Positions 4,731 through 54,932 of a stretch of DNA of 64,000 bases are shown in pieces. Each line of letters starts with the position of its first letter. Positions within the stretch are counted from its first letter, which is position 1. Origin of the DNA: a virus. The stretch lies in the IMG/VR virus record IMGVR_UViG_3300033148_004740, positions 1 through 64,000 of that record; one strand, given 5' to 3'. The notes beneath the pieces are model-generated. The model searched no databases. It was not told the origin of the DNA and saw nothing but the letters and a program-made list of their open reading frames with translations. Position numbers and translations under genes: made by a program.

Positions 4731-5706
4731 CTTCTGCCACCTCCATCTGCATACTGAGTACAGTATACTAGACGGAGTCAGTAAGGTAGAAGACGTAGCT
4801 AAGCAAGCCAAGAAACTTGGGATGAGATACTGTGCCATCACCGACCATGGTGTGCTGCACGGAATCATCGAGTTCTACAAGGCCTGCAAGAAGGAGGGCA
4901 TCAAGCCTATCCTTGGCTGCGAAGCCTATGTCACCGACGATCCAGACTTCCTTACTAAAGAGGAGATGACCAGGGACAATCGACACCTGGTCCTCCTAGT
5001 ACAGAACGAGACAGGGCTCAAGAACCTGATATGGCTGAGCAACAACGCACAGTTCAACAACTTCTATTACAAGCCTAGAATCTTTTGGGAGCACCTGAAA
5101 GCTAGATCCGAAGGCCTGGTAGCAATGTCCGCCTGCTTAGGAGGAATCCTGGGCAAGGGTGGAGAGTTCAACGACCAAGGCATCTTCTCTGACCCACTCA
5201 AGGGAGCAGAGGTATGGGGCGGCCGGATGATAGAAGCGTTTGGCCAGAACTTTTACATTGAGATCCAAGACCATGACATCGAGCAACAGCGTTCATTCAA
5301 CCAGTGGGCTATCAAGCTAGCGAAGAGAATACAGGCTCCACTAGTCATCACCTCTGACTGTCATTACCTCACAGAAGAAGACAAGGCAACACATGATCTC
5401 ATCATGGCACAGCAGATGGGGATGACGTTAGCTGAGCTTAAAGAGATGAATATGCGCGGCAACTATGAGAGATCAGATCTATCGATGAGGACACCAGATA
5501 GTCTATACAGATCAGCAGTCGAGATGGGGGCAGAGGAAGCCTTCGAGAACACTGGAAAGATTGCTGATAGTTGTAACGTCGAGCTCAAGCTAGGCAGTTA
5601 CGAGACACCAGAATTTAAGGTGGAAGACACTAACGACTACGAAGCTTTCCTGCTGTGGCAGAAAGACAAGTGTAGTATACTCGATCAACCTGATGAGCCA
5701 GCTTAA
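4702..5706 (+). CDS. dnaE: Stand-alone PHP domain of DNA polymerase III alpha (N-terminal part of split DnaE)
   Basis: HLHLHTEYSILDG, ITDHG, GCEAY, RHLVLL, YYKPRI, SACLGG, TSDCHY; stops at TAA 5704-5706. GTG start. Confidence 0.92.
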   Translation: MPSTKPPESNFCHLHLHTEYSILDGVSKVEDVAKQAKKLGMRYCAITDHGVLHGIIEFYKACKKEGIKPILGCEAYVTDDPDFLTKEEMTRDNRHLVLLVQNETGLKNLIWLSNNAQFNNFYYKPRIFWEHLKARSEGLVAMSACLGGILGKGGEFNDQGIFSDPLKGAEVWGGRMIEAFGQNFYIEIQDHDIEQQRSFNQWAIKLAKRIQAPLVITSDCHYLTEEDKATHDLIMAQQMGMTLAELKEMNMRGNYERSDLSMRTPDSLYRSAVEMGAEEAFENTGKIADSCNVELKLGSYETPEFKVEDTNDYEAFLLWQKDKCSILDQPDEPA

Positions 5707-8700
5707 CGATTACTTTGCCTACCGATGTGAGAGAGGCCTTTATGACCGAGGCTTCAATGACAATCCTGAATATACAAGTCGCCTGGAGTTTGAGATGAAG
5801 ACCATCATCAAGATGGGCTTCGCTGGATACTTCCTCATCGTTCAAGACTTCATCCAATGGGCAAGAGACAACGACATCTATGTTGGTCCTGGTCGCGGTA
5901 GTGCAGCTGGGAGTCTTGTCTCCTACTGCCTCACCATCACAGACATGGACCCAATCAGGTGGGGGCTTCTGTTCGAGAGGTTCCTCAATCCATCTCGTAT
6001 CTCTATGCCTGACATCGATGTGGACTTTGAGAAGGGACCACGCGAGAAGGTAATCCAGTACGTCATAGAGAAGTACGGGGTCGACAGAGTAGCTCACATT
6101 GGTACCTTCAACATGAAGAGAGCCAAGGCCTCTGTCAGAAGCATCGCTAAGATCCTCGGTCATCCCTATGCAGTAGGTGATCAGCTAGCCAAGCTCTGTC
6201 TTGCTCCTGTCCACGGGAAGGGTGTACCTCTGTCCGATAGCATCAAGAGAGTCCCAGAGCTCAATGCTTACCGTCGTACAAATTCAACACAAGGGGAGGT
6301 CCTTCGATGGGCAGAAAAGGTGGAGGATCATATAAGCAATGTGGGTGTCCACGCCTCCGGTGTGGTAATCAGCAATACGGACATGACGAGCAGCGTCCCC
6401 CTGTTTCTCGGAAAAGGCGGAGAAAGAACGACCCAATGGGAGATGAACAACATCGAGGAAGTGGGTCTGATCAAGTTCGACTTTCTGGGGCTGGATGCTC
6501 TGACGAAGATTCATGATTGCGTAGATCTAGTTCGCGAACAGCATGATGTGAGAATATGCATCAGAGACATAGACATCAAAGATGACGAGGTCTATGAGAA
6601 GCTGCGTAGCGGAGACCAGGTAGGCATCTTCCAGCTGGAAGCTAGCGGAGGTATGCAGGACCTATTGGTACAGATTCGCCCAACATGCCTTGATGATCTC
6701 ACGGCTCTAGTGGCAATCTACCGGCCAGGTCCGATGACCTCAGCCTACAAGGATACATACTTAGAGGTACGCGCAGGCAATCGGCTAGCAGAGTATCTGG
6801 TTCCAGAACTCGAATCTATCCTTTCCCCAACCAATGGCTGGCTAATCTACCAAGAACAATGTTGTCCCGAAGGCTCCCCCATCTGGACTGACAAAGGTCC
6901 CGTCTCGATAGAAGACATTAAAACAGGGGACAAGGTACAGGTATGTGGATATTATGACGAAGTAACTGACACAGCCTATACTGGAATGAAAGAATGTTTA
7001 GAGATAGAAACTTCTGCTGGAGTCTTCTCGTGTACACCAGACCATAAGGTGCTAGCCTATAATCCTCTAACTAATTCAGATGAATTCATAGAGGCTTCTT
7101 CCCTAAAAGAATCACAGCTTATTCGCAAGGTGAGTATAAACCATATGTGCAATACTTCCCTTGCATTTGAGGCGGACCAGACAGACCTGATAGGAGAATC
7201 TTACCGAGTAGGAGTTCTTCTCGGAGATGGGTGTGTCACCAAAAGCTGTACAATAGCTACAGGGACACAAGAATTTGCTGATTATCTAGCTAAGGTTTTC
7301 AAACCATGGGGAGAAGTAGTAAAATATTTTCACGAAAGATGCTGGTATATAAGTGTTAAAAGAAAGGGAGGAAGGGGACCATCAGTTAAAAAAGGAGAAT
7401 TCCGGTCCCCAGTAATGGAGAAACTAAACGAGTATAGATTGTTAGGAAAAACAGCACAAGAGAAACGAATTCCTTCTTTTGTAAGACAAAGTAAATCGTT
7501 ACTGGCGGCTTGTATACGAGGATTGATAGATACTGATGGCTCTGTTCTCCCAGGAAAACCATGGCATATAACCAGCACTTCTCCCCAATTAATCAATGAT
7601 ATTAGTTGGGCCATGAACCAACTAGGGATCAGTCATGTTACTCGAACTAATCGTATATACTTCAGTAACCTTGAACAACTCCGTTGGACAGAATATGGTT
7701 TCAAGAGTTTACCTTATGAGGGCAGAGAAGATGAATCACAAGTCTATCCGCGCAAACGTATCAACTCTTTTATAGACCGAAGAAGAAAACAAACAGAGTC
7801 AATTAAAGATGCTTGTTTCAGGCAAAACTACAGTTATGACAAATATAACAGCAAGCTTCCCTGGATCAGGAAAAGCTCTATCCCTAGTCTGATACTGACA
7901 CAGTTACAAATAGAAGAATCTCCATTTTATACCTATGTAAAAAATATCCAGCACGCTGGAACAAGAAGAGTATATGACATTACTACCAAGCATTCACACC
8001 AGTTCAATGTGTCAGGACATATAGTTCACAACTGCATGCACATCGCTAAGAACCTCTGTGGATACACAGGAGCTGAAGCTGATGATCTGCGCAAGGCTAT
8101 TGGAAAGAAGATCCCAGAGAAGATGGCCAAGCATGAGCCTAAGTTCAAAGAGGGCTGGGTCAAGAATGGTCTTCCCAAAGCAGAGGGCAACACTCTATGG
8201 GAGGACATGGTTAGCTTCGCCAGCTATGGTTTCAATAAATCACACGCTGCTGCCTATGCCATGATCACCTACCAGACTGCCTGGCTAAAGACATACTACC
8301 CAACAGAGTACATGTGCGCAGCTATGATCTCTGATGCAGGTGACAAAGATCAGATGATCAAGTACCTGGCCGAGTGCAAGAGACTAGGCATCAAGGTCCT
8401 CCCACCTGACATCAATAACAGCAGGGCCACGTTCCACGTTGACGGGCCAGAGCTAGTCAGGTTCGGGCTAGGTCCTATCAAGAACCTGGGGGCTGGCTCC
8501 CTTGATATCATCAAGGAGAGGACAGAGGGTGGCCTCTTCACAGACATCCGTAACTTCTGTGAGAGAGTAGACACCAGTGCTGTCAACAGCAAGAAGGTAG
8601 ACTCCCTCATCAAGGCTGGAGCCTTTGACAGCTTCGGTGTGACTCGTGCAGCTCTGCTTGCTTCCATCCCTCTCATCTGGGAGCACAAGAAGCAACAGAA

Positions 8701-9502
8701 GGCCTACTCGAGTAAGCTGAACACATATGCAAAGAAGCTGGCAGCATGTGAGCAACGAGAGAAAGACATTGAAGATGGGAAGCTCTCTGAGAAAGGGAAG
8801 AAGCTCCGTACTCTCAAGCCTCCTGTGAGACCAGTCCCACCAGCATGGCCAGAGCTATCCGAGCTCGACGAGTCTCCCAAAGAAATCATTCAAGCGGATG
8901 AGCATGACCTCCTCGGCTTCTACGTCTCGTCCCACCCGTTGGATGGAGTGATGACAGGAGCGTTTGGCCAGAAGTTCAATGCTATTGAAGACGTCAAGCA
9001 AATGAACACTGGGACGAAAGTTTCGTTAGCGGTGGTTATTACCAAGCACAGTGAGATTACAACAGCAAAGAAGAAGAAACAAATGTCGTTCCCTACGCTA
9101 GAAGATATGACAGGGAGCATCGATTCCATTTGTTTCCCCAATGTTTATGATAAGTGTGGTCACCTACTAGATGACCCAAGACCAATGGAGATCAATGGGA
9201 GAGTAGATGTAACAGAGGCAGATGACGGTAGAATCACTAAGATAATGATCAGCAGAATAGTTCCGCTGAAAGCAGAGATCACCAGAGATATACCAGAGAG
9301 GATAGAGACAACAGTCAAGGCAACAAGAGTCAAAGACTTCTTGGCCCTGATAGAAAAGTACAAAGGAACTCTGCACGAGGTGCGAGTAGCATTCCAGACA
9401 GAGAGTGGGATGCAAGCAAGATGCCCAGTTGTAGTGAAGATAGGAAACTACAAGGGAGCATTTATGCGAGAGCTAGCAAAGTTGGACAATGAACACGAAT
9501 AA
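5693..9502 (+). CDS. dnaE: DNA polymerase III alpha catalytic core (palm/fingers/HhH/OB), PHP-less, with intein
   Basis: GPGRGSAAGSLVSY, SMPDIDVDF, HASGVVI, IKFDFLGL, YRPGP, FNKSHAAAY, LGFYVSSHP, C-terminal OB fold (LEDMTGSID). Confidence 0.97.
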   Translation: MSQLNDYFAYRCERGLYDRGFNDNPEYTSRLEFEMKTIIKMGFAGYFLIVQDFIQWARDNDIYVGPGRGSAAGSLVSYCLTITDMDPIRWGLLFERFLNPSRISMPDIDVDFEKGPREKVIQYVIEKYGVDRVAHIGTFNMKRAKASVRSIAKILGHPYAVGDQLAKLCLAPVHGKGVPLSDSIKRVPELNAYRRTNSTQGEVLRWAEKVEDHISNVGVHASGVVISNTDMTSSVPLFLGKGGERTTQWEMNNIEEVGLIKFDFLGLDALTKIHDCVDLVREQHDVRICIRDIDIKDDEVYEKLRSGDQVGIFQLEASGGMQDLLVQIRPTCLDDLTALVAIYRPGPMTSAYKDTYLEVRAGNRLAEYLVPELESILSPTNGWLIYQEQCCPEGSPIWTDKGPVSIEDIKTGDKVQVCGYYDEVTDTAYTGMKECLEIETSAGVFSCTPDHKVLAYNPLTNSDEFIEASSLKESQLIRKVSINHMCNTSLAFEADQTDLIGESYRVGVLLGDGCVTKSCTIATGTQEFADYLAKVFKPWGEVVKYFHERCWYISVKRKGGRGPSVKKGEFRSPVMEKLNEYRLLGKTAQEKRIPSFVRQSKSLLAACIRGLIDTDGSVLPGKPWHITSTSPQLINDISWAMNQLGISHVTRTNRIYFSNLEQLRWTEYGFKSLPYEGREDESQVYPRKRINSFIDRRRKQTESIKDACFRQNYSYDKYNSKLPWIRKSSIPSLILTQLQIEESPFYTYVKNIQHAGTRRVYDITTKHSHQFNVSGHIVHNCMHIAKNLCGYTGAEADDLRKAIGKKIPEKMAKHEPKFKEGWVKNGLPKAEGNTLWEDMVSFASYGFNKSHAAAYAMITYQTAWLKTYYPTEYMCAAMISDAGDKDQMIKYLAECKRLGIKVLPPDINNSRATFHVDGPELVRFGLGPIKNLGAGSLDIIKERTEGGLFTDIRNFCERVDTSAVNSKKVDSLIKAGAFDSFGVTRAALLASIPLIWEHKKQQKAYSSKLNTYAKKLAACEQREKDIEDGKLSEKGKKLRTLKPPVRPVPPAWPELSELDESPKEIIQADEHDLLGFYVSSHPLDGVMTGAFGQKFNAIEDVKQMNTGTKVSLAVVITKHSEITTAKKKKQMSFPTLEDMTGSIDSICFPNVYDKCGHLLDDPRPMEINGRVDVTEADDGRITKIMISRIVPLKAEITRDIPERIETTVKATRVKDFLALIEKYKGTLHEVRVAFQTESGMQARCPVVVKIGNYKGAFMRELAKLDNEHE
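6860..8032 (+). mobile_element. Intein (391 aa) with LAGLIDADG endonuclease in dnaE core
   Basis: YQEQ|CCPEGS ... CTPDHKV ... LLGDG ... RGLIDTDG ... GHIVHN|CMHIAK. Removing it restores YQEQ-CMxIA. AT-rich segment. Confidence 0.95.
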
Positions 9503-49580: not shown

Positions 49581-50699
49581 TTACACCTTTATTCCTTCCA
49601 ATCTGGCTTTCATTGCTTCGCCGATCTTCTTCCAAGAGAAATTCTGTTCGACAAAAGCTTTTCCTAATGACCCAGCAGCCCATGCTGCGCCCTGGTTCTC
49701 GAATACAAACCTCATCTGTTTACGTGCGTCTAATAGACTTGGCTCAGCCCAGGTCATTTCTCCCGTATACATTGGCCAAGGCATTCCCCAGACAGGGGCC
49801 TTGGTATACTTGACTGGGTAAGCCTGTCCTACTTGAATGAATTCATCGCTCCCGCTATACCCAGTAGCTATAACTGGATTTGCCTCTGCCATTGCCTCTA
49901 CCATAGGAATACCAAATCCCTCACATTTATGCAAAGAGACATAACAGTCTCCCTGGATATGCAGGCAGCGGATCTGTCCTCTTGAGAGAAGGCTAGAGAT
50001 GAGCAGAATCTTTGGGAAGCTAGGAAGATGTAGACTATCTTTGATCTGTTTTACCTGTCTTCGGATGACAGCTATATCTTCTTCCATACCTGGATTCAAG
50101 CAATAGCTTTTCATGACCAGGCGGACCTTCTCCTCTGCTTTGAACTCTGTCAAGAATGCTCTCAGAAGAGCAGCAGGATTCTTCCTCTCTAGCCACTGGA
50201 AGATAGAATAGAAGGTAAACTCTCCTTCTTCAGCAGGTTCAAGCACGGGATTTTTTGATACCTCTTCCTCTTGGTTGAAGTTGAAAGTATGAGGGAAACA
50301 GTGGATAGGAATTGTGATACCAGAATCCTTGAACACCTTCACATTGTACTGACTAGGGACCCAGACTTCATCCAGGGTGTTGATCTTAGTAACCCAGTCC
50401 CGTGGGAGCTGATCCGTTTCCCACGCAGCATAGCCAATATTGTATCTGCCAGGCTTTACCAACTGTGAGTAGTTAGGAGGGGTAGCATGGAGAATGAAGA
50501 TCTTGTCACCAATGCGAGCCTTCTGGAGCTTAGTGATGAGTTTTCCCATCTCTCCAAGAGCTGGTCTCTTTTGTTCAAAACTAATGGGAGCCACGTTCAG
50601 GTCTACTCCTGCTAGGTACAGTGCTGCGATGTTGTTCCTTGCCGCTTCTGCATAGCCAGACCCATCTAGACAGGCTCCTACGTATGTTACTTGTACCAT
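49581..50699 (-). CDS. Glycosyltransferase family 4
   Basis: SGYAEAAR, AWETDQLP, DEVWVPS, ERKN, EGFGIPMVEAMA, TGYSG. Confidence 0.92.
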   Translation of the reverse strand: MVQVTYVGACLDGSGYAEAARNNIAALYLAGVDLNVAPISFEQKRPALGEMGKLITKLQKARIGDKIFILHATPPNYSQLVKPGRYNIGYAAWETDQLPRDWVTKINTLDEVWVPSQYNVKVFKDSGITIPIHCFPHTFNFNQEEEVSKNPVLEPAEEGEFTFYSIFQWLERKNPAALLRAFLTEFKAEEKVRLVMKSYCLNPGMEEDIAVIRRQVKQIKDSLHLPSFPKILLISSLLSRGQIRCLHIQGDCYVSLHKCEGFGIPMVEAMAEANPVIATGYSGSDEFIQVGQAYPVKYTKAPVWGMPWPMYTGEMTWAEPSLLDARKQMRFVFENQGAAWAAGSLGKAFVEQNFSWKKIGEAMKARLEGIKV

Positions 50700-51958
50700 T
50701 ACTGTCCTCCCCTTAGCTGCATTGAAGGTAACCTAGGAGTCTCTCTCTTCATTGTGACTCGAGCAAAGAGATCGACCCATGCCTTTGTGACAGCTCTCCA
50801 GTCGTGCTGGATAGCCCAGCTACGTGCTAGGCGGGCTTTTTCGTTACCGTACTTGGGTCCAGCCATAAAAGCTTTCGTCATCTGCTCAACGATCTCTGGA
50901 AGTAGTCCCTTTGGTCTGTACCCAGAGTTGTCTATCCAAATCTGATCTTTGCACTCATACATGTACCCTCTCTCACTGTCTTCCCCAAGCTGCTGAGGCA
51001 TAGAGGTGTTTCTGGGAGCTACTACTGGGACACCTGCGGCCATAGCCTCTGTTACGGTTAGCCCCCACCCTTCTCCTAGGTGAGTGGTGAGGAAAACATC
51101 TGCCATGTTATACAGCATGTTCAGCTTCTTAGAAGAGATAGGTTGCGCGGGGTTATACCCTACTGGGTAGATGATGTCTTCGCTCTTAGAGAGGCCAAGG
51201 GACCCTATTGCCTTCAGCATATCTCCACCCTGGTCTGTGACTGCAGAGTGGAGATACATCTTGGCAGTTGGAAAGCGTTCTTTGAACTTCTTGAAAGCTA
51301 GGAAAGAGTAGGGAAGCTGCTTCCTAGTAGAGTTACGATTCACATTAATGATGACCGGAGTCCCCTCTTCAACTCCAAGAAAAGTCTTTCTAACTTCATC
51401 GTTCTTCTCTTTAGATCTGGGAGTATAGATCGCACTATCTACCCCATGAGGAATCTCTAGGAGAACCTTCTCGAGATCTGGGAAGGTATGGAGCGTTCGC
51501 TCCTTCCCATGCTTGGTATAGCAGACCGGGATATCAACGGCTCTCAAAAAGCGGGAAGCCTCGGTGGGAACATTACAGTCGACCGGGTAGTAGTAGATAA
51601 AGGTTGGGGGCTTGTGCCCCTTCTTCTTACACTCGTTCTTGAACTTCACCAACTCGTCTGCGACAGCGTCAGTCACATAGAGATCATTACAGACCCAGAC
51701 AATATCATATGGCTGTTCGTACAGAGTCTTGATGAACATCTTCATCCCGTGTGGATCACGGGGGTCCATTAGTTTAGCTGGCTGCATGAGCCAGGGAACT
51801 ACATTACGGTCGATGAAGCTTCCGTGAAAGTTAATGGCAAGATGATGGATGTCGTAGAGTCCCGTTGCGTGCAGAGCCCCTACAACATGCTTGCTCACGA
51901 TACCAAAGCCTGTTCCAGCAATCGCAGAATCAGACCAGCATAATACTTTACGTTTCAT
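50699..51958 (-). CDS. Glycosyltransferase family 4
   Basis: TGFGIVS, YYPVD, IPHGVD, NRNSTRK, GEGWGLTVTEAMAAGVPVV. Confidence 0.92.
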   Translation of the reverse strand: MKRKVLCWSDSAIAGTGFGIVSKHVVGALHATGLYDIHHLAINFHGSFIDRNVVPWLMQPAKLMDPRDPHGMKMFIKTLYEQPYDIVWVCNDLYVTDAVADELVKFKNECKKKGHKPPTFIYYYPVDCNVPTEASRFLRAVDIPVCYTKHGKERTLHTFPDLEKVLLEIPHGVDSAIYTPRSKEKNDEVRKTFLGVEEGTPVIINVNRNSTRKQLPYSFLAFKKFKERFPTAKMYLHSAVTDQGGDMLKAIGSLGLSKSEDIIYPVGYNPAQPISSKKLNMLYNMADVFLTTHLGEGWGLTVTEAMAAGVPVVAPRNTSMPQQLGEDSERGYMYECKDQIWIDNSGYRPKGLLPEIVEQMTKAFMAGPKYGNEKARLARSWAIQHDWRAVTKAWVDLFARVTMKRETPRLPSMQLRGGQ

Positions 51959-53920
51959 TTAGACCTCTTCTATCCTTAGTCTTTGATTGCCTGTTCTTTC
52001 CAGGTGATCGATACATGAGTTAACAACCTCTGACGGCTGAATGATCTTCCAGCAGAGCTCACCAATGCTACAGCCCTTGTACCAGCAATCCCAGGTTCCC
52101 ATATTTTGTATACAGAATGTAGTACTATTTTCGACCGTAATATCATATACATACTCATCCCGACGATCGGAAAGCTCAATCTTTTTGATTGGAACATATA
52201 GATAATCTTCATCAACTATGTGTCTACTCCACGTCGCCTGTTGATTAGGAATATATACTCTGTAGATGATTGCATCCTGCTTGTAATTAGTATGATGTTT
52301 TCTCTTGTATATCCGAGACCAGATACCAAACCTAGTCAGTAGCTCTTGAGTTCCATAAGCCATCAGACGAGAAGCTGTACTCAGAACTTTATTATCCTTA
52401 TCTTGATAACCGTCTCCTTGTAGATAGCCAGTAATAAAACTTTCAATCGCAATATCACTAGCATTCCATAGAAGAAAAGGAATCTCCTTTTGGACCGCTC
52501 TTCTTTTTCCAAAGAAAGTATCTATATACTCAACAAGAGGCTGCGAATAAATTTCCACCCTAGTAGAATTGTCCTTAGTAGACGGATAGACTCCAACTGT
52601 TGCCGAATATTTGGAGCGACCAAAGCCTCTTAGGGTCTCAATAATCTGTTCTTCATGTGAGCCTACAGTAAAGACAACGGACTTACGATCTGGCCGTAGA
52701 TGACCCTCCGCTGCATAAAGTCCCAACACTTGATATGTAAGCAGATCAACCTCTGGAAGAATAGGATCTGCCTTGTTCCGAGGAACACACAAGAAATCAT
52801 TATCGGTTAACTCTTCTGCTGGAATCCATTCTCTGTTCGCAGTAAAGTTTTTTCTACGAAAGGCCGATGATGAGCCCTTAACGGCAAGCATTTTATGGTC
52901 CTGTGTCACAGTAATTGGCTCGTTTGAGCCAAAATATTCTATGTCATAGAGCTTTCTACCTTTGCGTAAATTCTTATGAACCTTAGTAATTTTGTTCCAA
53001 TTGGAGTCGGTTGTTTTAACAGTTTGCCCGACTTCTAGATCCTGGATTTCTCGGTATCCACTTGCTGTTAAAACTAAGCTCTCCTTAACTACACAAGGAC
53101 ACGGGTTGTACTGGTCACCTTTCCAAACAGCTACAGCCTTGTTGTAGTGGTTGATACGGGCAGCAGGATGTGTAGGACCAAAGTAAGATACTGTGGGGAT
53201 ACCAAGAGCCCCTGCAATATGGAGAAGGGACGAGTCAGGGCAGAGGACCAGATCACATGCAGCAGTGATAGCAGCTATCTCCCGAACCTTCTTGTCCTTT
53301 AAGAGAAGACCTCCAGGAAGGTTATCCCACATGACATTGCTTTGCCAGTCACTCTGGTGGGTAAAGATAATTGGTTTTGCTTTGATTCGCTGACCTAACA
53401 TGACCAAGATCTCTTTGAGCTTTCTATGGTCAAATGATCTGATCTTATTACTGGCAAATGGCTGTACTGCGATCTTGGGATAGAAATGATATTGTCTGAC
53501 TACATCCCGTCCTTCTTCTAGCTCCCCTTTCGTCAGATAGATGTGAGGAACAGAGTCTTCTAGTTTGACACCAGCTGCATTAGCAAACAGATCAATACGA
53601 TTGATTGGAGGGTTCCCGTGAACCTCATACTCTGTGCACGGACAATGCAGGTCTAAGACTGCATCAAACTGATCTCTGACTAAATGGTTCTTGTCTACGA
53701 ACCCGTTGATGTCTGGGTTAAACATAAGAATATCAACTAGAGCTCCGCCAAGATAGCGTGTATCTGTGGCTACTATGATCTGACCATCAGGGAACTCTTT
53801 CTTGAGGGCTCTGATAGTAGGGGTCAGCATAATCACATCACCGATACCCTGACCACGGATCACACAGATCTTAGGGGCACCGGTAGAGATCAGTCTGCGA
53901 AGACGGTCTAAAATTTTCAA
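51959..53920 (-). CDS. Glycosyltransferase family 9 (heptosyltransferase-like) interrupted by an intein
   Basis: IRGQGIGDVIMLTP, DSSLLHIAGALGIPTVSYFGPT; the spliced product restores NPCP-CWYKGC...LCW. Confidence 0.9.
   Translation of the reverse strand: MKILDRLRRLISTGAPKICVIRGQGIGDVIMLTPTIRALKKEFPDGQIIVATDTRYLGGALVDILMFNPDINGFVDKNHLVRDQFDAVLDLHCPCTEYEVHGNPPINRIDLFANAAGVKLEDSVPHIYLTKGELEEGRDVVRQYHFYPKIAVQPFASNKIRSFDHRKLKEILVMLGQRIKAKPIIFTHQSDWQSNVMWDNLPGGLLLKDKKVREIAAITAACDLVLCPDSSLLHIAGALGIPTVSYFGPTHPAARINHYNKAVAVWKGDQYNPCPCVVKESLVLTASGYREIQDLEVGQTVKTTDSNWNKITKVHKNLRKGRKLYDIEYFGSNEPITVTQDHKMLAVKGSSSAFRRKNFTANREWIPAEELTDNDFLCVPRNKADPILPEVDLLTYQVLGLYAAEGHLRPDRKSVVFTVGSHEEQIIETLRGFGRSKYSATVGVYPSTKDNSTRVEIYSQPLVEYIDTFFGKRRAVQKEIPFLLWNASDIAIESFITGYLQGDGYQDKDNKVLSTASRLMAYGTQELLTRFGIWSRIYKRKHHTNYKQDAIIYRVYIPNQQATWSRHIVDEDYLYVPIKKIELSDRRDEYVYDITVENSTTFCIQNMGTWDCWYKGCSIGELCWKIIQPSEVVNSCIDHLERTGNQRLRIEEV
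52088..53095 (-). mobile_element. Intein (336 aa) with LAGLIDADG endonuclease and atypical C-terminal Asp
   Basis: Starts CVVKESLVLT; block B TVTQDHKM; GLYAAEG and GYLQGDG; block F YVYDITVE; ends NMGTWD (codons TGG GAT) before +1 Cys (TGC). AT-rich. Confidence 0.9.
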
Positions 53921-53933
53921 GGTGGGTCCTTTC

Positions 53934-54932
53934 TTACATATTCGAGGCTAGTAAACAGCCACGGGCTACAGCGCGCAATGGATCGCTAGCATAGCGAACC
54001 TCAGATACTGCCAGAGGAAAATCTCCTCTAGCTAGCCGAGCTCTGAAGGCATCCAAGAATCCCTTTGCTCTTGAAGATCCTCCACTAACTACTACAGGAA
54101 TAGCTTTTGAGAACTTAGGAAGATCCTTACTATCCTGTAGCCTCACGGCCAACCAGCTAACAGTATAGTCAATGAGACGAAGGTAGTATGCAGACACAGC
54201 AGATAGGATCGGATTCTCATTGTCCTCCCCTACTACAAAGTCTCCATTCTCCTTCTCTACCTGAACAATACTGTCCTCTTGGGCAGTAGACACTGCAGCC
54301 ATGCGATCGATCCAGTCCCCACTACGTGTAGTAGAGAACTTAATGACCGCCTCACCAGAAGACATGACGCACACGTTGACCATGCCAGCACCAAACGACA
54401 GAGTGATACCTGTGTAATCACTATCCTCGAGCTCTGAATAGCAGATAGCTTCTGCTTCATTCAAGGGCCGAGGCTGCCACCCAAACTCTTCCAAGTCTTT
54501 CTTGAGAGCGTCCTCATGGAATCCAGTATCGAAGTGTTCTCCGTCTTGGTCCACAGGAGGTGCTGGGATAGAGTAGACGAGTATGTCTCCCTTCTTCTTA
54601 GGCTTGCCTACCAATTTCTGTAAGATGAACTTGAGCACACGGCGCGCGTCTGGTTCACGGGGAGAAAGAACTCCACGGAACAGGGGCCTGCGTGCTGACT
54701 GATGGCGCTCAATTGCTTTCTCGATGGCGTCAGCGCCTACTACTACAAAACTACCATCGGTGTCTTTGAAATACGAACGATTAGCTAGGCCCTTCTCCAT
54801 CATCTTAGCAGCGATGGGAGAAGCAGGGGTCATACGATAGAACGCATCCCTGAACTCAGTATACCTAACCTTGTCAGATGACTCGGTTGCTTTGATAAGA
54901 AATGAGGTTCCTACATCGAGTCCTATTGGCAT
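53934..54932 (-). CDS. Actin-fold ATPase, volactin-like
   Basis: GLDVGT (phosphate 1), LNEAEAICYSEL (connect 1), TGITLSFGAGMVNV (phosphate 2), GDWID, VVSGGSS (adenosine), PLRAVARG (connect 2). Confidence 0.85.
   Translation of the reverse strand: MPIGLDVGTSFLIKATESSDKVRYTEFRDAFYRMTPASPIAAKMMEKGLANRSYFKDTDGSFVVVGADAIEKAIERHQSARRPLFRGVLSPREPDARRVLKFILQKLVGKPKKKGDILVYSIPAPPVDQDGEHFDTGFHEDALKKDLEEFGWQPRPLNEAEAICYSELEDSDYTGITLSFGAGMVNVCVMSSGEAVIKFSTTRSGDWIDRMAAVSTAQEDSIVQVEKENGDFVVGEDNENPILSAVSAYYLRLIDYTVSWLAVRLQDSKDLPKFSKAIPVVVSGGSSRAKGFLDAFRARLARGDFPLAVSEVRYASDPLRAVARGCLLASNM

Follow-up and report, generated by a model that had tools for sequence, protein, structure and literature searches.

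The RIR1 intein of Carboxydothermus hydrogenoformans (Chy RIR1), the prototype of Asp-terminated class 1 inteins, carries a C-terminal Asp and has reportedly been shown to splice (Amitai, Dassa, and Pietrokovski 2004, J Biol Chem 279:3121). Inteins in general are concentrated in proteins of replication and nucleotide metabolism (PMC4760082), and two His residues, at positions F:13 and G:6 of their conserved blocks, normally assist cyclization of the C-terminal Asn but are dispensable in some inteins (PMC4031507). Residues other than His occupy G:6 in about 5% of functional inteins, and according to Mills, Johnson, and Perler, inteins with a C-terminal Asp, Gln, or Glu share the splicing mechanism except for the residue that cyclizes (PMC4031507). 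Here, we describe an intein that interrupts a GT9 glycosyltransferase gene of an uncultured phage. The DNA analyzed (64,000 nucleotides, called the window below) is the first 64 kb of IMG/VR virus record IMGVR_UViG_3300033148_004740, a linear record of 126,472 bp that is ~66% complete. The intein ends in Trp-Asp and splits a Cys cluster of its host protein. We conclude that it is probably an active class 1 LAGLIDADG homing intein, specific to the PCP/CWY site of phage GT9 proteins (the slash marks the junction) and released by cyclization of its terminal Asp.

The boundaries of the insert were set by comparison with homologs that lack it. The host open reading frame runs through 653 codons without a stop or a frameshift. 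It matched the Pfam families Glyco_transf_9 (PF01075; 1.4e-13) and Intein_splicing (8e-11, 42.4 bits at a cut-off of 35.8), and the insert alone matched LAGLIDADG_3 (2e-14). NCBIfam matches were to heptosyltransferases and to the intein portions of archaeal intein-bearing proteins. The GT9 motifs (GxGD near the N terminus, DSxxxH, and FGPT) were all retained in the exteins and were invariant in the homolog alignment. A search of a 5.8-billion-protein collection returned 3 intein-bearing and >40 intein-free GT9 homologs, and in >30 of the latter the site reads ...PCPCWYxxCPxxxxCW. Because the intein-free homologs read PCPCWY, the insert is exactly Cys1 to Asp336, placed between the Pro and the Cys of the Cys cluster (coordinates in Table 1). 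On the minus strand, Trp335-Asp336 is encoded by TGG GAT (52093-52088) and Cys+1 by TGC (52087-52085). Two other placements were rejected: ending the intein at the invariant Asn331 leaves a nonnucleophilic +1 residue plus five residues absent from the intein-free alleles, and shifting the register by one Cys results in Val1 and a C-terminal Cys. A preliminary description of this DNA, made from its letters and open reading frames alone, had called a full LAGLIDADG intein of 336 amino acids (aa) that splits the GT9 Cys cluster and ends in Trp-Asp before Cys+1. Its coordinates proved exact, in agreement with Pfam and the intein-free homologs, and the codons at the junction were as it had read them.

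To define the family to which this intein belongs, we scanned 1.84 billion cluster representatives by HMMER with the intein alone. Nine proteins matched over the full length of the intein at 34 to 47% identity, and all nine were GT9 proteins. With the window copy, protein P0006 from the homolog search above, and three loci from an additional metagenome scan (L008, L009, and the partial L010), these make up a set of 14 alleles, of which the 13 besides the window copy come from metagenomes. The terminus reads x-Asp/Cys-Trp-Tyr in every allele (14/14). The penultimate residue is Trp in six, Phe in four, Tyr in two, and Asn in two, with His in none; likewise, the F:13 position across the family holds Thr or Pro and never His. 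In the seven alleles for which DNA was available, the codon for the terminal Asp was GAT five times and GAC twice, and silent sites were saturated in every pair (proportion of silent differences, pS, 0.69-0.87; of replacement differences, pN, 0.14-0.44). Because the Asp has persisted in 14 of 14 alleles, in two codon forms and against saturated silent sites, it is under selection. The 13 full-length alleles share 44 invariant columns, which include Cys1, T64, H67, K68, the A-E-G and G-D-G of the two LAGLIDADG motifs, D318, Thr326-Phe327, Asn331, D336, and the Cys-Trp-Tyr at +1 to +3. As judged from the alignment, selection on splicing as well as on the endonuclease would be expected to produce such conservation. 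The comparison with allelic inteins and intein-free alleles that the preliminary description had proposed could thus draw on 13 further alleles as well as the >40 intein-free homologs. Of the Trp-Asp end that it pointed out, the Asp is invariant, but the Trp is not a family feature. A scan of IMG/VR returned only a contig already found (L006, the same as L003) and an unrelated canonical NrdD intein (L007), and a word-index search for longer proteins gave no further alleles. Metagenome locus L011 was set aside as an unrelated intein ending in His-Asn (HN), not a GT9 allele.

In its blocks, the intein conforms to class 1 in most respects. HINT blocks A, B, F, and G are present, as are Cys1, the TxxH motif, the Asp at F:4, Cys+1, and a conserved insertion site with intein-free alleles. 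It departs from class 1 in its C-terminal residue (Asp336 in place of Asn) and at G:6 and F:13, where Trp335 and Thr325 stand in place of His. Both LAGLIDADG motifs have their acidic residue and Gly. Assignment to class 3 (WCT) inteins was ruled out by the presence of Cys1 and of Asp at F:4.

Canonical inteins in the same genome and in related contigs provided internal controls for these departures. In the window, the open reading frame for DnaE (DNA polymerase III alpha; 5693-9502, plus strand) holds a canonical LAGLIDADG intein of 391 aa (6860-8032), which starts at YQEQ/CCPEG and finishes at GHIVHN/CMHIA. Counted from the block F Asp (F:4), positions +7, +17, and +18 are H, H, and N in the DnaE intein versus T, W, and D in the GT9 intein, and the two do not differ in spacing. 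The 150 best intein matches included others, outside GT9, with this same spacing; these ended in HN (103), SN (14), AN (4), and further pairs, including a single HQ, but none ended in Asp. One GT9 protein, P0056 (1149 aa), carries two inteins: a canonical one ending ...IIVHN/T in the N-terminal R-x-GGIGD motif (residues about 57-489) and a second one ending ...VFD/C at the Cys-cluster site. GT9 therefore offers at least two insertion sites. In addition, the GT4 gene that adjoins GT9 in locus L004 (8152-10809, plus strand) holds a canonical LAGLIDADG intein (GEGWGL/C...ILAHN/T), whose site motif is GEGWGLTVTEAM in the GT4 gene of the window (50699-51958). Given the HN termini of these control inteins, the Asp terminus with neither assisting His residue is specific to the lineage at the GT9 Cys-cluster site. 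Glycosyltransferases are recurrent intein hosts in this virus group.

The predicted fold resembles that of known inteins with a LAGLIDADG endonuclease. We modeled the intein together with six extein residues on each side using AlphaFold2 and an 11-row alignment, which gave a mean predicted local distance difference test score (pLDDT) of 88.5 and a predicted template modeling score (pTM) of 0.89. The top Foldseek match was the TliVMA intein (7qsu; E value 3e-20, template modeling [TM] score 0.74), followed by PI-SceI, PhoVMA, PI-PkoII, and PI-PfuI, and then by free LAGLIDADG enzymes, among them I-DmoI, that aligned to the middle domain. In a sequence search of the PDB with the intein, TliVMA was the sole detectable match.

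The site that the intein occupies is a Cys cluster in the host protein: once the intein is removed, the sequence across the junction is C-P-C-W-Y-x-x-C-x5-C. In one intein-free clade, the first two Cys residues are both replaced by His (GHPHWY...C....C), and in another, ligands 1 and 3 are lost jointly (YPxWY...). From these sequence patterns, the C-x-C-x4-C-x5-C cluster (window positions 52040-52105, minus strand; intein-free homologs P0008-P0045) probably behaves as a four-ligand metal site, or metal finger. In TibC, a GT9-like protein heptosyltransferase, activity depends on a C-terminal four-Cys iron finger (PMC4358343). When the intein-free homolog P0009 was modeled (pLDDT 85.9), it matched the GT9 structures 3tov, WaaF, and WaaC, with a TM score of 0.60 to TibC. 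The insertion site falls in the loop that leads from the last strand into the C-terminal helix. While the intein is present in the precursor, it keeps the Cys cluster from forming; this is typical of intein sites and alone is no evidence of regulation.

Composition and phylogeny both bear on how the intein came to this site. The GC content of the intein is 39.9%, compared with 46.3% and 45.7% in the exteins, and GC content at third codon positions is 33.6% versus 45.1%. In a maximum-likelihood tree of the exteins, built with inteins removed from 11 intein-bearing and 38 intein-free proteins, the presence of inteins requires at least 6 changes, at least 4 of which are forced by well-supported branches. 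The window GT9 falls in a clade of 29 with 100% support, and the other 28 members are intein free; the nearest relatives of its intein (46-47% identity) belong to distant GT9 clades. The low GC content and the patchy distribution over the GT9 tree fit homing with occasional loss. The preliminary description had supposed that the GT9 is conserved in coinfecting relatives, and many intein-free GT9 alleles do have the conserved target site that a homing element requires.

Taking these data together, we propose the following pathway for the favored reading, that of an active homing intein released by Asp cyclization. The gene would be translated as a 653-aa precursor, in which a thioester would form at Cys1 with the aid of Thr64 and His67 in block B and Asp318 in block F. 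The N-extein would then pass to Cys+1, giving a branched intermediate, and the terminal Asp336 would cyclize to a succinic anhydride, not a succinimide, cutting off the intein. An S-to-N shift would follow, yielding a 317-aa GT9 protein with its CPCWYxxCxxxxxC cluster restored. With the F:13 and G:6 His residues absent family-wide, the local surroundings of the cyclization step would differ from the usual ones. One candidate helper is the invariant Lys68 (block B position 11), the counterpart of Arg B:11 in Ssp DnaE, an intein that likewise lacks His at G:6. A carboxylic acid nucleophile needs none of the deprotonation ascribed to His F:13, which may explain how both His residues could be lost together. 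Finally, the endonuclease domain would spread the intein into the intein-free GT9 alleles of coinfecting relatives.

Several observations weigh against this reading. His F:13, His G:6, and Asn G:7, the usual drivers of C-terminal cleavage, are all replaced, and splicing can be slow in inteins that end in Gln (PMC4031507). The window intein has six private changes at columns that are invariant in the other 12 alleles (K15R, I20L, P88R, W122Q, R267H, and T328C), the highest count among the 13 full-length alleles. Two of these, W122Q and R267H, fall within the endonuclease domain, and on this sequence evidence the endonuclease of the window copy, less likely its splicing, may be decaying, perhaps at an early stage after fixation. 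In addition, the intein tree is poorly supported at depth, so the donor lineage cannot be named.

An extension of the favored reading is that the GT9 inteins may have a coherent, histidine-independent mode of C-terminal cleavage. Here, formation of the Asp anhydride would be helped by three residues: an aromatic one or Asn at G:6, Thr at F:14, and Lys at B:11. Its rate would depend either on pH or on whether the split Cys cluster is occupied by metal or oxidized, so that the glycosylation enzyme of the phage would mature only under particular intracellular conditions. We consider this extension unlikely. A related explanation treats splicing itself as a switch: splicing is slow or conditional, unspliced precursor builds up, and pH (through a protonated Asp), redox state, or metal availability governs when GT9 matures. 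The arrangement of the site lends this some appeal, because the splice junctions lie inside the Cys cluster (Cys-2, Cys1, Cys+1, Cys+6, and Cys+12) and the cluster looks like a metal site, both in its joint change from C-x-C to H-x-H and in its joint loss of ligands; in TibC, such a finger is needed for activity (PMC4358343). In several alleles a Cys at -3 makes a CxxC with Cys1, and low pH favors C-terminal cleavage, while Gln-ended inteins show that splicing can be slow (PMC4031507). However, the upstream Cys is missing in P0007 and P0058 and stands at either -2 or -3 in other alleles, so a redox trap is not family-wide. Moreover, inteins often sit at ligand or catalytic residues merely because homing sites must be conserved, and the patchy distribution matches that of a selfish element. 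We therefore regard a splicing switch as decidedly unlikely. The idea in the preliminary description that slow or conditional splicing could gate the GT9, and so glycosylation, finds no support in the present data.

It is also conceivable that the intein is dead, or only cleaves, which would leave the GT9 as a pseudogene or functional only in pieces. The joint absence of His F:13, His G:6, and Asn G:7 would be in keeping with such a loss, as would the six private deviations of the window allele, which include T328C in block F. Yet the same terminus is kept in 14 of 14 alleles despite saturated silent sites, and conservation extends to all the nucleophiles, to both exteins, and to the catalytic residues of the endonuclease. 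Furthermore, a nonsplicing insert would free both the intein and the GT9 from selection. The 653 codons contain no stop or frameshift. These data make a dead intein quite improbable. A bacterial intein-like (BIL) domain, or another Hint domain whose action on the host protein is limited to cleavage or rearrangement, is suggested by the atypical C terminus and by weak matches to the Pfam models Hint_2 and Hint. This explanation is very improbable given the homing endonuclease domain, the exact placement within a conserved motif, the existence of intein-free alleles, the presence of Cys1 and Cys+1, and a score above the Intein_splicing cut-off. Lastly, the preliminary description had raised the suspicion of an A>G sequencing or assembly error with a true codon of AAT (Asn), a single transition from GAT, but this is excluded for practical purposes by the Asp found in 13 independent alleles from other samples, in both GAT and GAC form, and by the consistent deviation of the penultimate and F:13 positions as well.

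The features of the precursor gene are collected in Table 1. Directly upstream of GT9 lies a gene for a volactin-family actin homolog (53934-54932, minus strand; Pfam PF25216, 2.9e-61). The gene order volactin-like actin, GT9, GT4, GT4 is kept in two other intein-bearing contigs, and volactin-GT9-GT4 is found in L003 and L004. The window GT9 has a single domain, without the ~40-aa N-terminal extension present in most homologs. Several intein-bearing GT9 proteins are fused to extra domains (P0006, P0053, P0055, L008, and L009, about 1000 aa; P0052, 1269 aa); a second GT9 domain is present in P0006, P0055, and the truncated P0054, and a GT2 domain is present in P0052. Searches of GenBank phages by blastn and tblastn returned no relative of the GT9 gene or the N-extein, and the primase-helicase of the phage had distant matches only.

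Table 1. Features of the intein-bearing GT9 gene, in window coordinates
Feature	Position	Strand	Basis
GT9 glycosyltransferase precursor gene, 653 aa, TTG start, stop codon 51959-51961	51959..53920	-	Open reading frame list, Pfam, conserved GT9 motifs
Shine-Dalgarno-like GAAAGGA, 6 nucleotides upstream of the TTG start	53927..53933	-	Sequence reading
N-extein, 275 aa, ends ...NPCP	53096..53920	-	Pfam and alignment
Intein, 336 aa, Cys1...Trp335-Asp336, in frame	52088..53095	-	Pfam, alignment, model
Block A with Cys1 (TGT 53093-53095)	53057..53095	-	Cys1 invariant in 13 full-length alleles
Block B, T64-Q-D-H67-K68 (TxxH, then invariant Lys)	52880..52921	-	Allele alignment
LAGLIDADG motif 1, VLGLYAAEGHL, invariant A-E-G; AAEG is residues 128-131	52697..52729	-	Pfam and allele alignment
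LAGLIDADG motif 2, FITGYLQGDGY, invariant G-D-G; QGDG is residues 226-229	52406..52438	-	Pfam and allele alignment
Block F, YVYDITVENSTTFCIQN; Asp318 (in VYD) is F:4, Thr325 at the F:13 His position	52103..52153	-	Allele alignment; spacing relative to the DnaE intein
Block G, MGTWD; terminal Asp336 codon GAT 52088-52090	52088..52102	-	Sequence and alleles
C-extein, 42 aa, begins Cys+1-Trp-Tyr; with Cys-2 gives C-x-C-x4-C-x5-C after splicing	51962..52087	-	Alignment

These results add a glycosyltransferase, with a probable metal-finger site, to the list of intein hosts, and they show that the sugar-transfer genes of one uncultured phage group carry at least 3 different intein sites. No description of an intein in a GT9 protein or heptosyltransferase was found in the literature searched. 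The preliminary description had held both the host class and the chemistry to be unusual. For the host, this agrees with the literature searched, but within this virus group glycosyltransferases recur as hosts (GT4 and a second GT9 site). The chemistry is less exceptional than supposed, since the penultimate Trp varies among the alleles and His G:6 is missing from ~5% of functional inteins; that Asp termini are a rare but known variant, as it had stated, agrees with the review literature (PMC4031507). With 14 diverged alleles, an invariant Asp, neither of the two C-terminal His residues, and HN controls that share their genomes and in one case their host protein, the GT9 inteins are a convenient system for studying the last cleavage in Asp-ended inteins, and they may become a source of splicing tools that respond differently to pH or metal. 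For annotation, a terminus other than His-Asn should not be taken as a sign of error or of a dead intein.

Compared with described systems, the GT9 intein is closest in its terminus to Chy RIR1, which likewise has a C-terminal Asp in place of Asn and for which the standard four-step pathway with Asp cyclization is presumed. By its description, Chy RIR1 is set apart by its host, a ribonucleotide reductase and not a GT9, and by its insertion site. In the GT9 family, the Asp is invariant over 14 alleles and is coupled to loss of both assisting His residues; for Chy RIR1, the comparison is with the description only. Functional inteins of the Ssp DnaE type resemble the GT9 intein in having a residue other than His at G:6 (PMC4031507; Sun et al. 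2005), and at position 11 of block B both carry a basic side chain (Arg in Ssp DnaE, the invariant Lys68 here) that could compensate. However, the Ssp DnaE-type inteins retain the terminal Asn, whereas the GT9 family has W, F, Y, or N at G:6 and Asp at G:7. In the Gln-terminated inteins (Pab and Mma Pol II and CIV RNR), another amide or acid side chain likewise replaces Asn, showing that the terminal residue can change in nature; unlike the GT9 Asp, their Gln forms a six-membered glutarimide, and several are slow and are improved by Asn (PMC4031507).

Structurally, the best matches are TliVMA, PhoVMA, and PI-SceI (7qsu, 7qss, 7qst, 1vde, and 1ef0; E values 3e-20 to 1e-15, TM scores up to 0.74), which share with the GT9 intein the architecture of a HINT domain with a two-motif LAGLIDADG endonuclease but differ in sequence (14-20% identity), in their V-type ATPase hosts, and in their canonical termini. 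On the host side, the phage GT9 and the TibC/BAHT heptosyltransferases (PMC4358343; 4rap and 4rb4) have the GT-B fold in common, and the latter have a C-terminal four-Cys metal finger. The spacing of the TibC finger (C339, C342, C358, and C370) differs from the phage C-x-C-x4-C-x5-C, and a sequence search gave no match; metal binding by the phage protein is a prediction. Because Asp termini and non-His penultimate residues are already documented, the GT9 inteins are placed within the known Asp-ended variant of class 1, in which they make up a new family whose insertion site and class of host are new as well.

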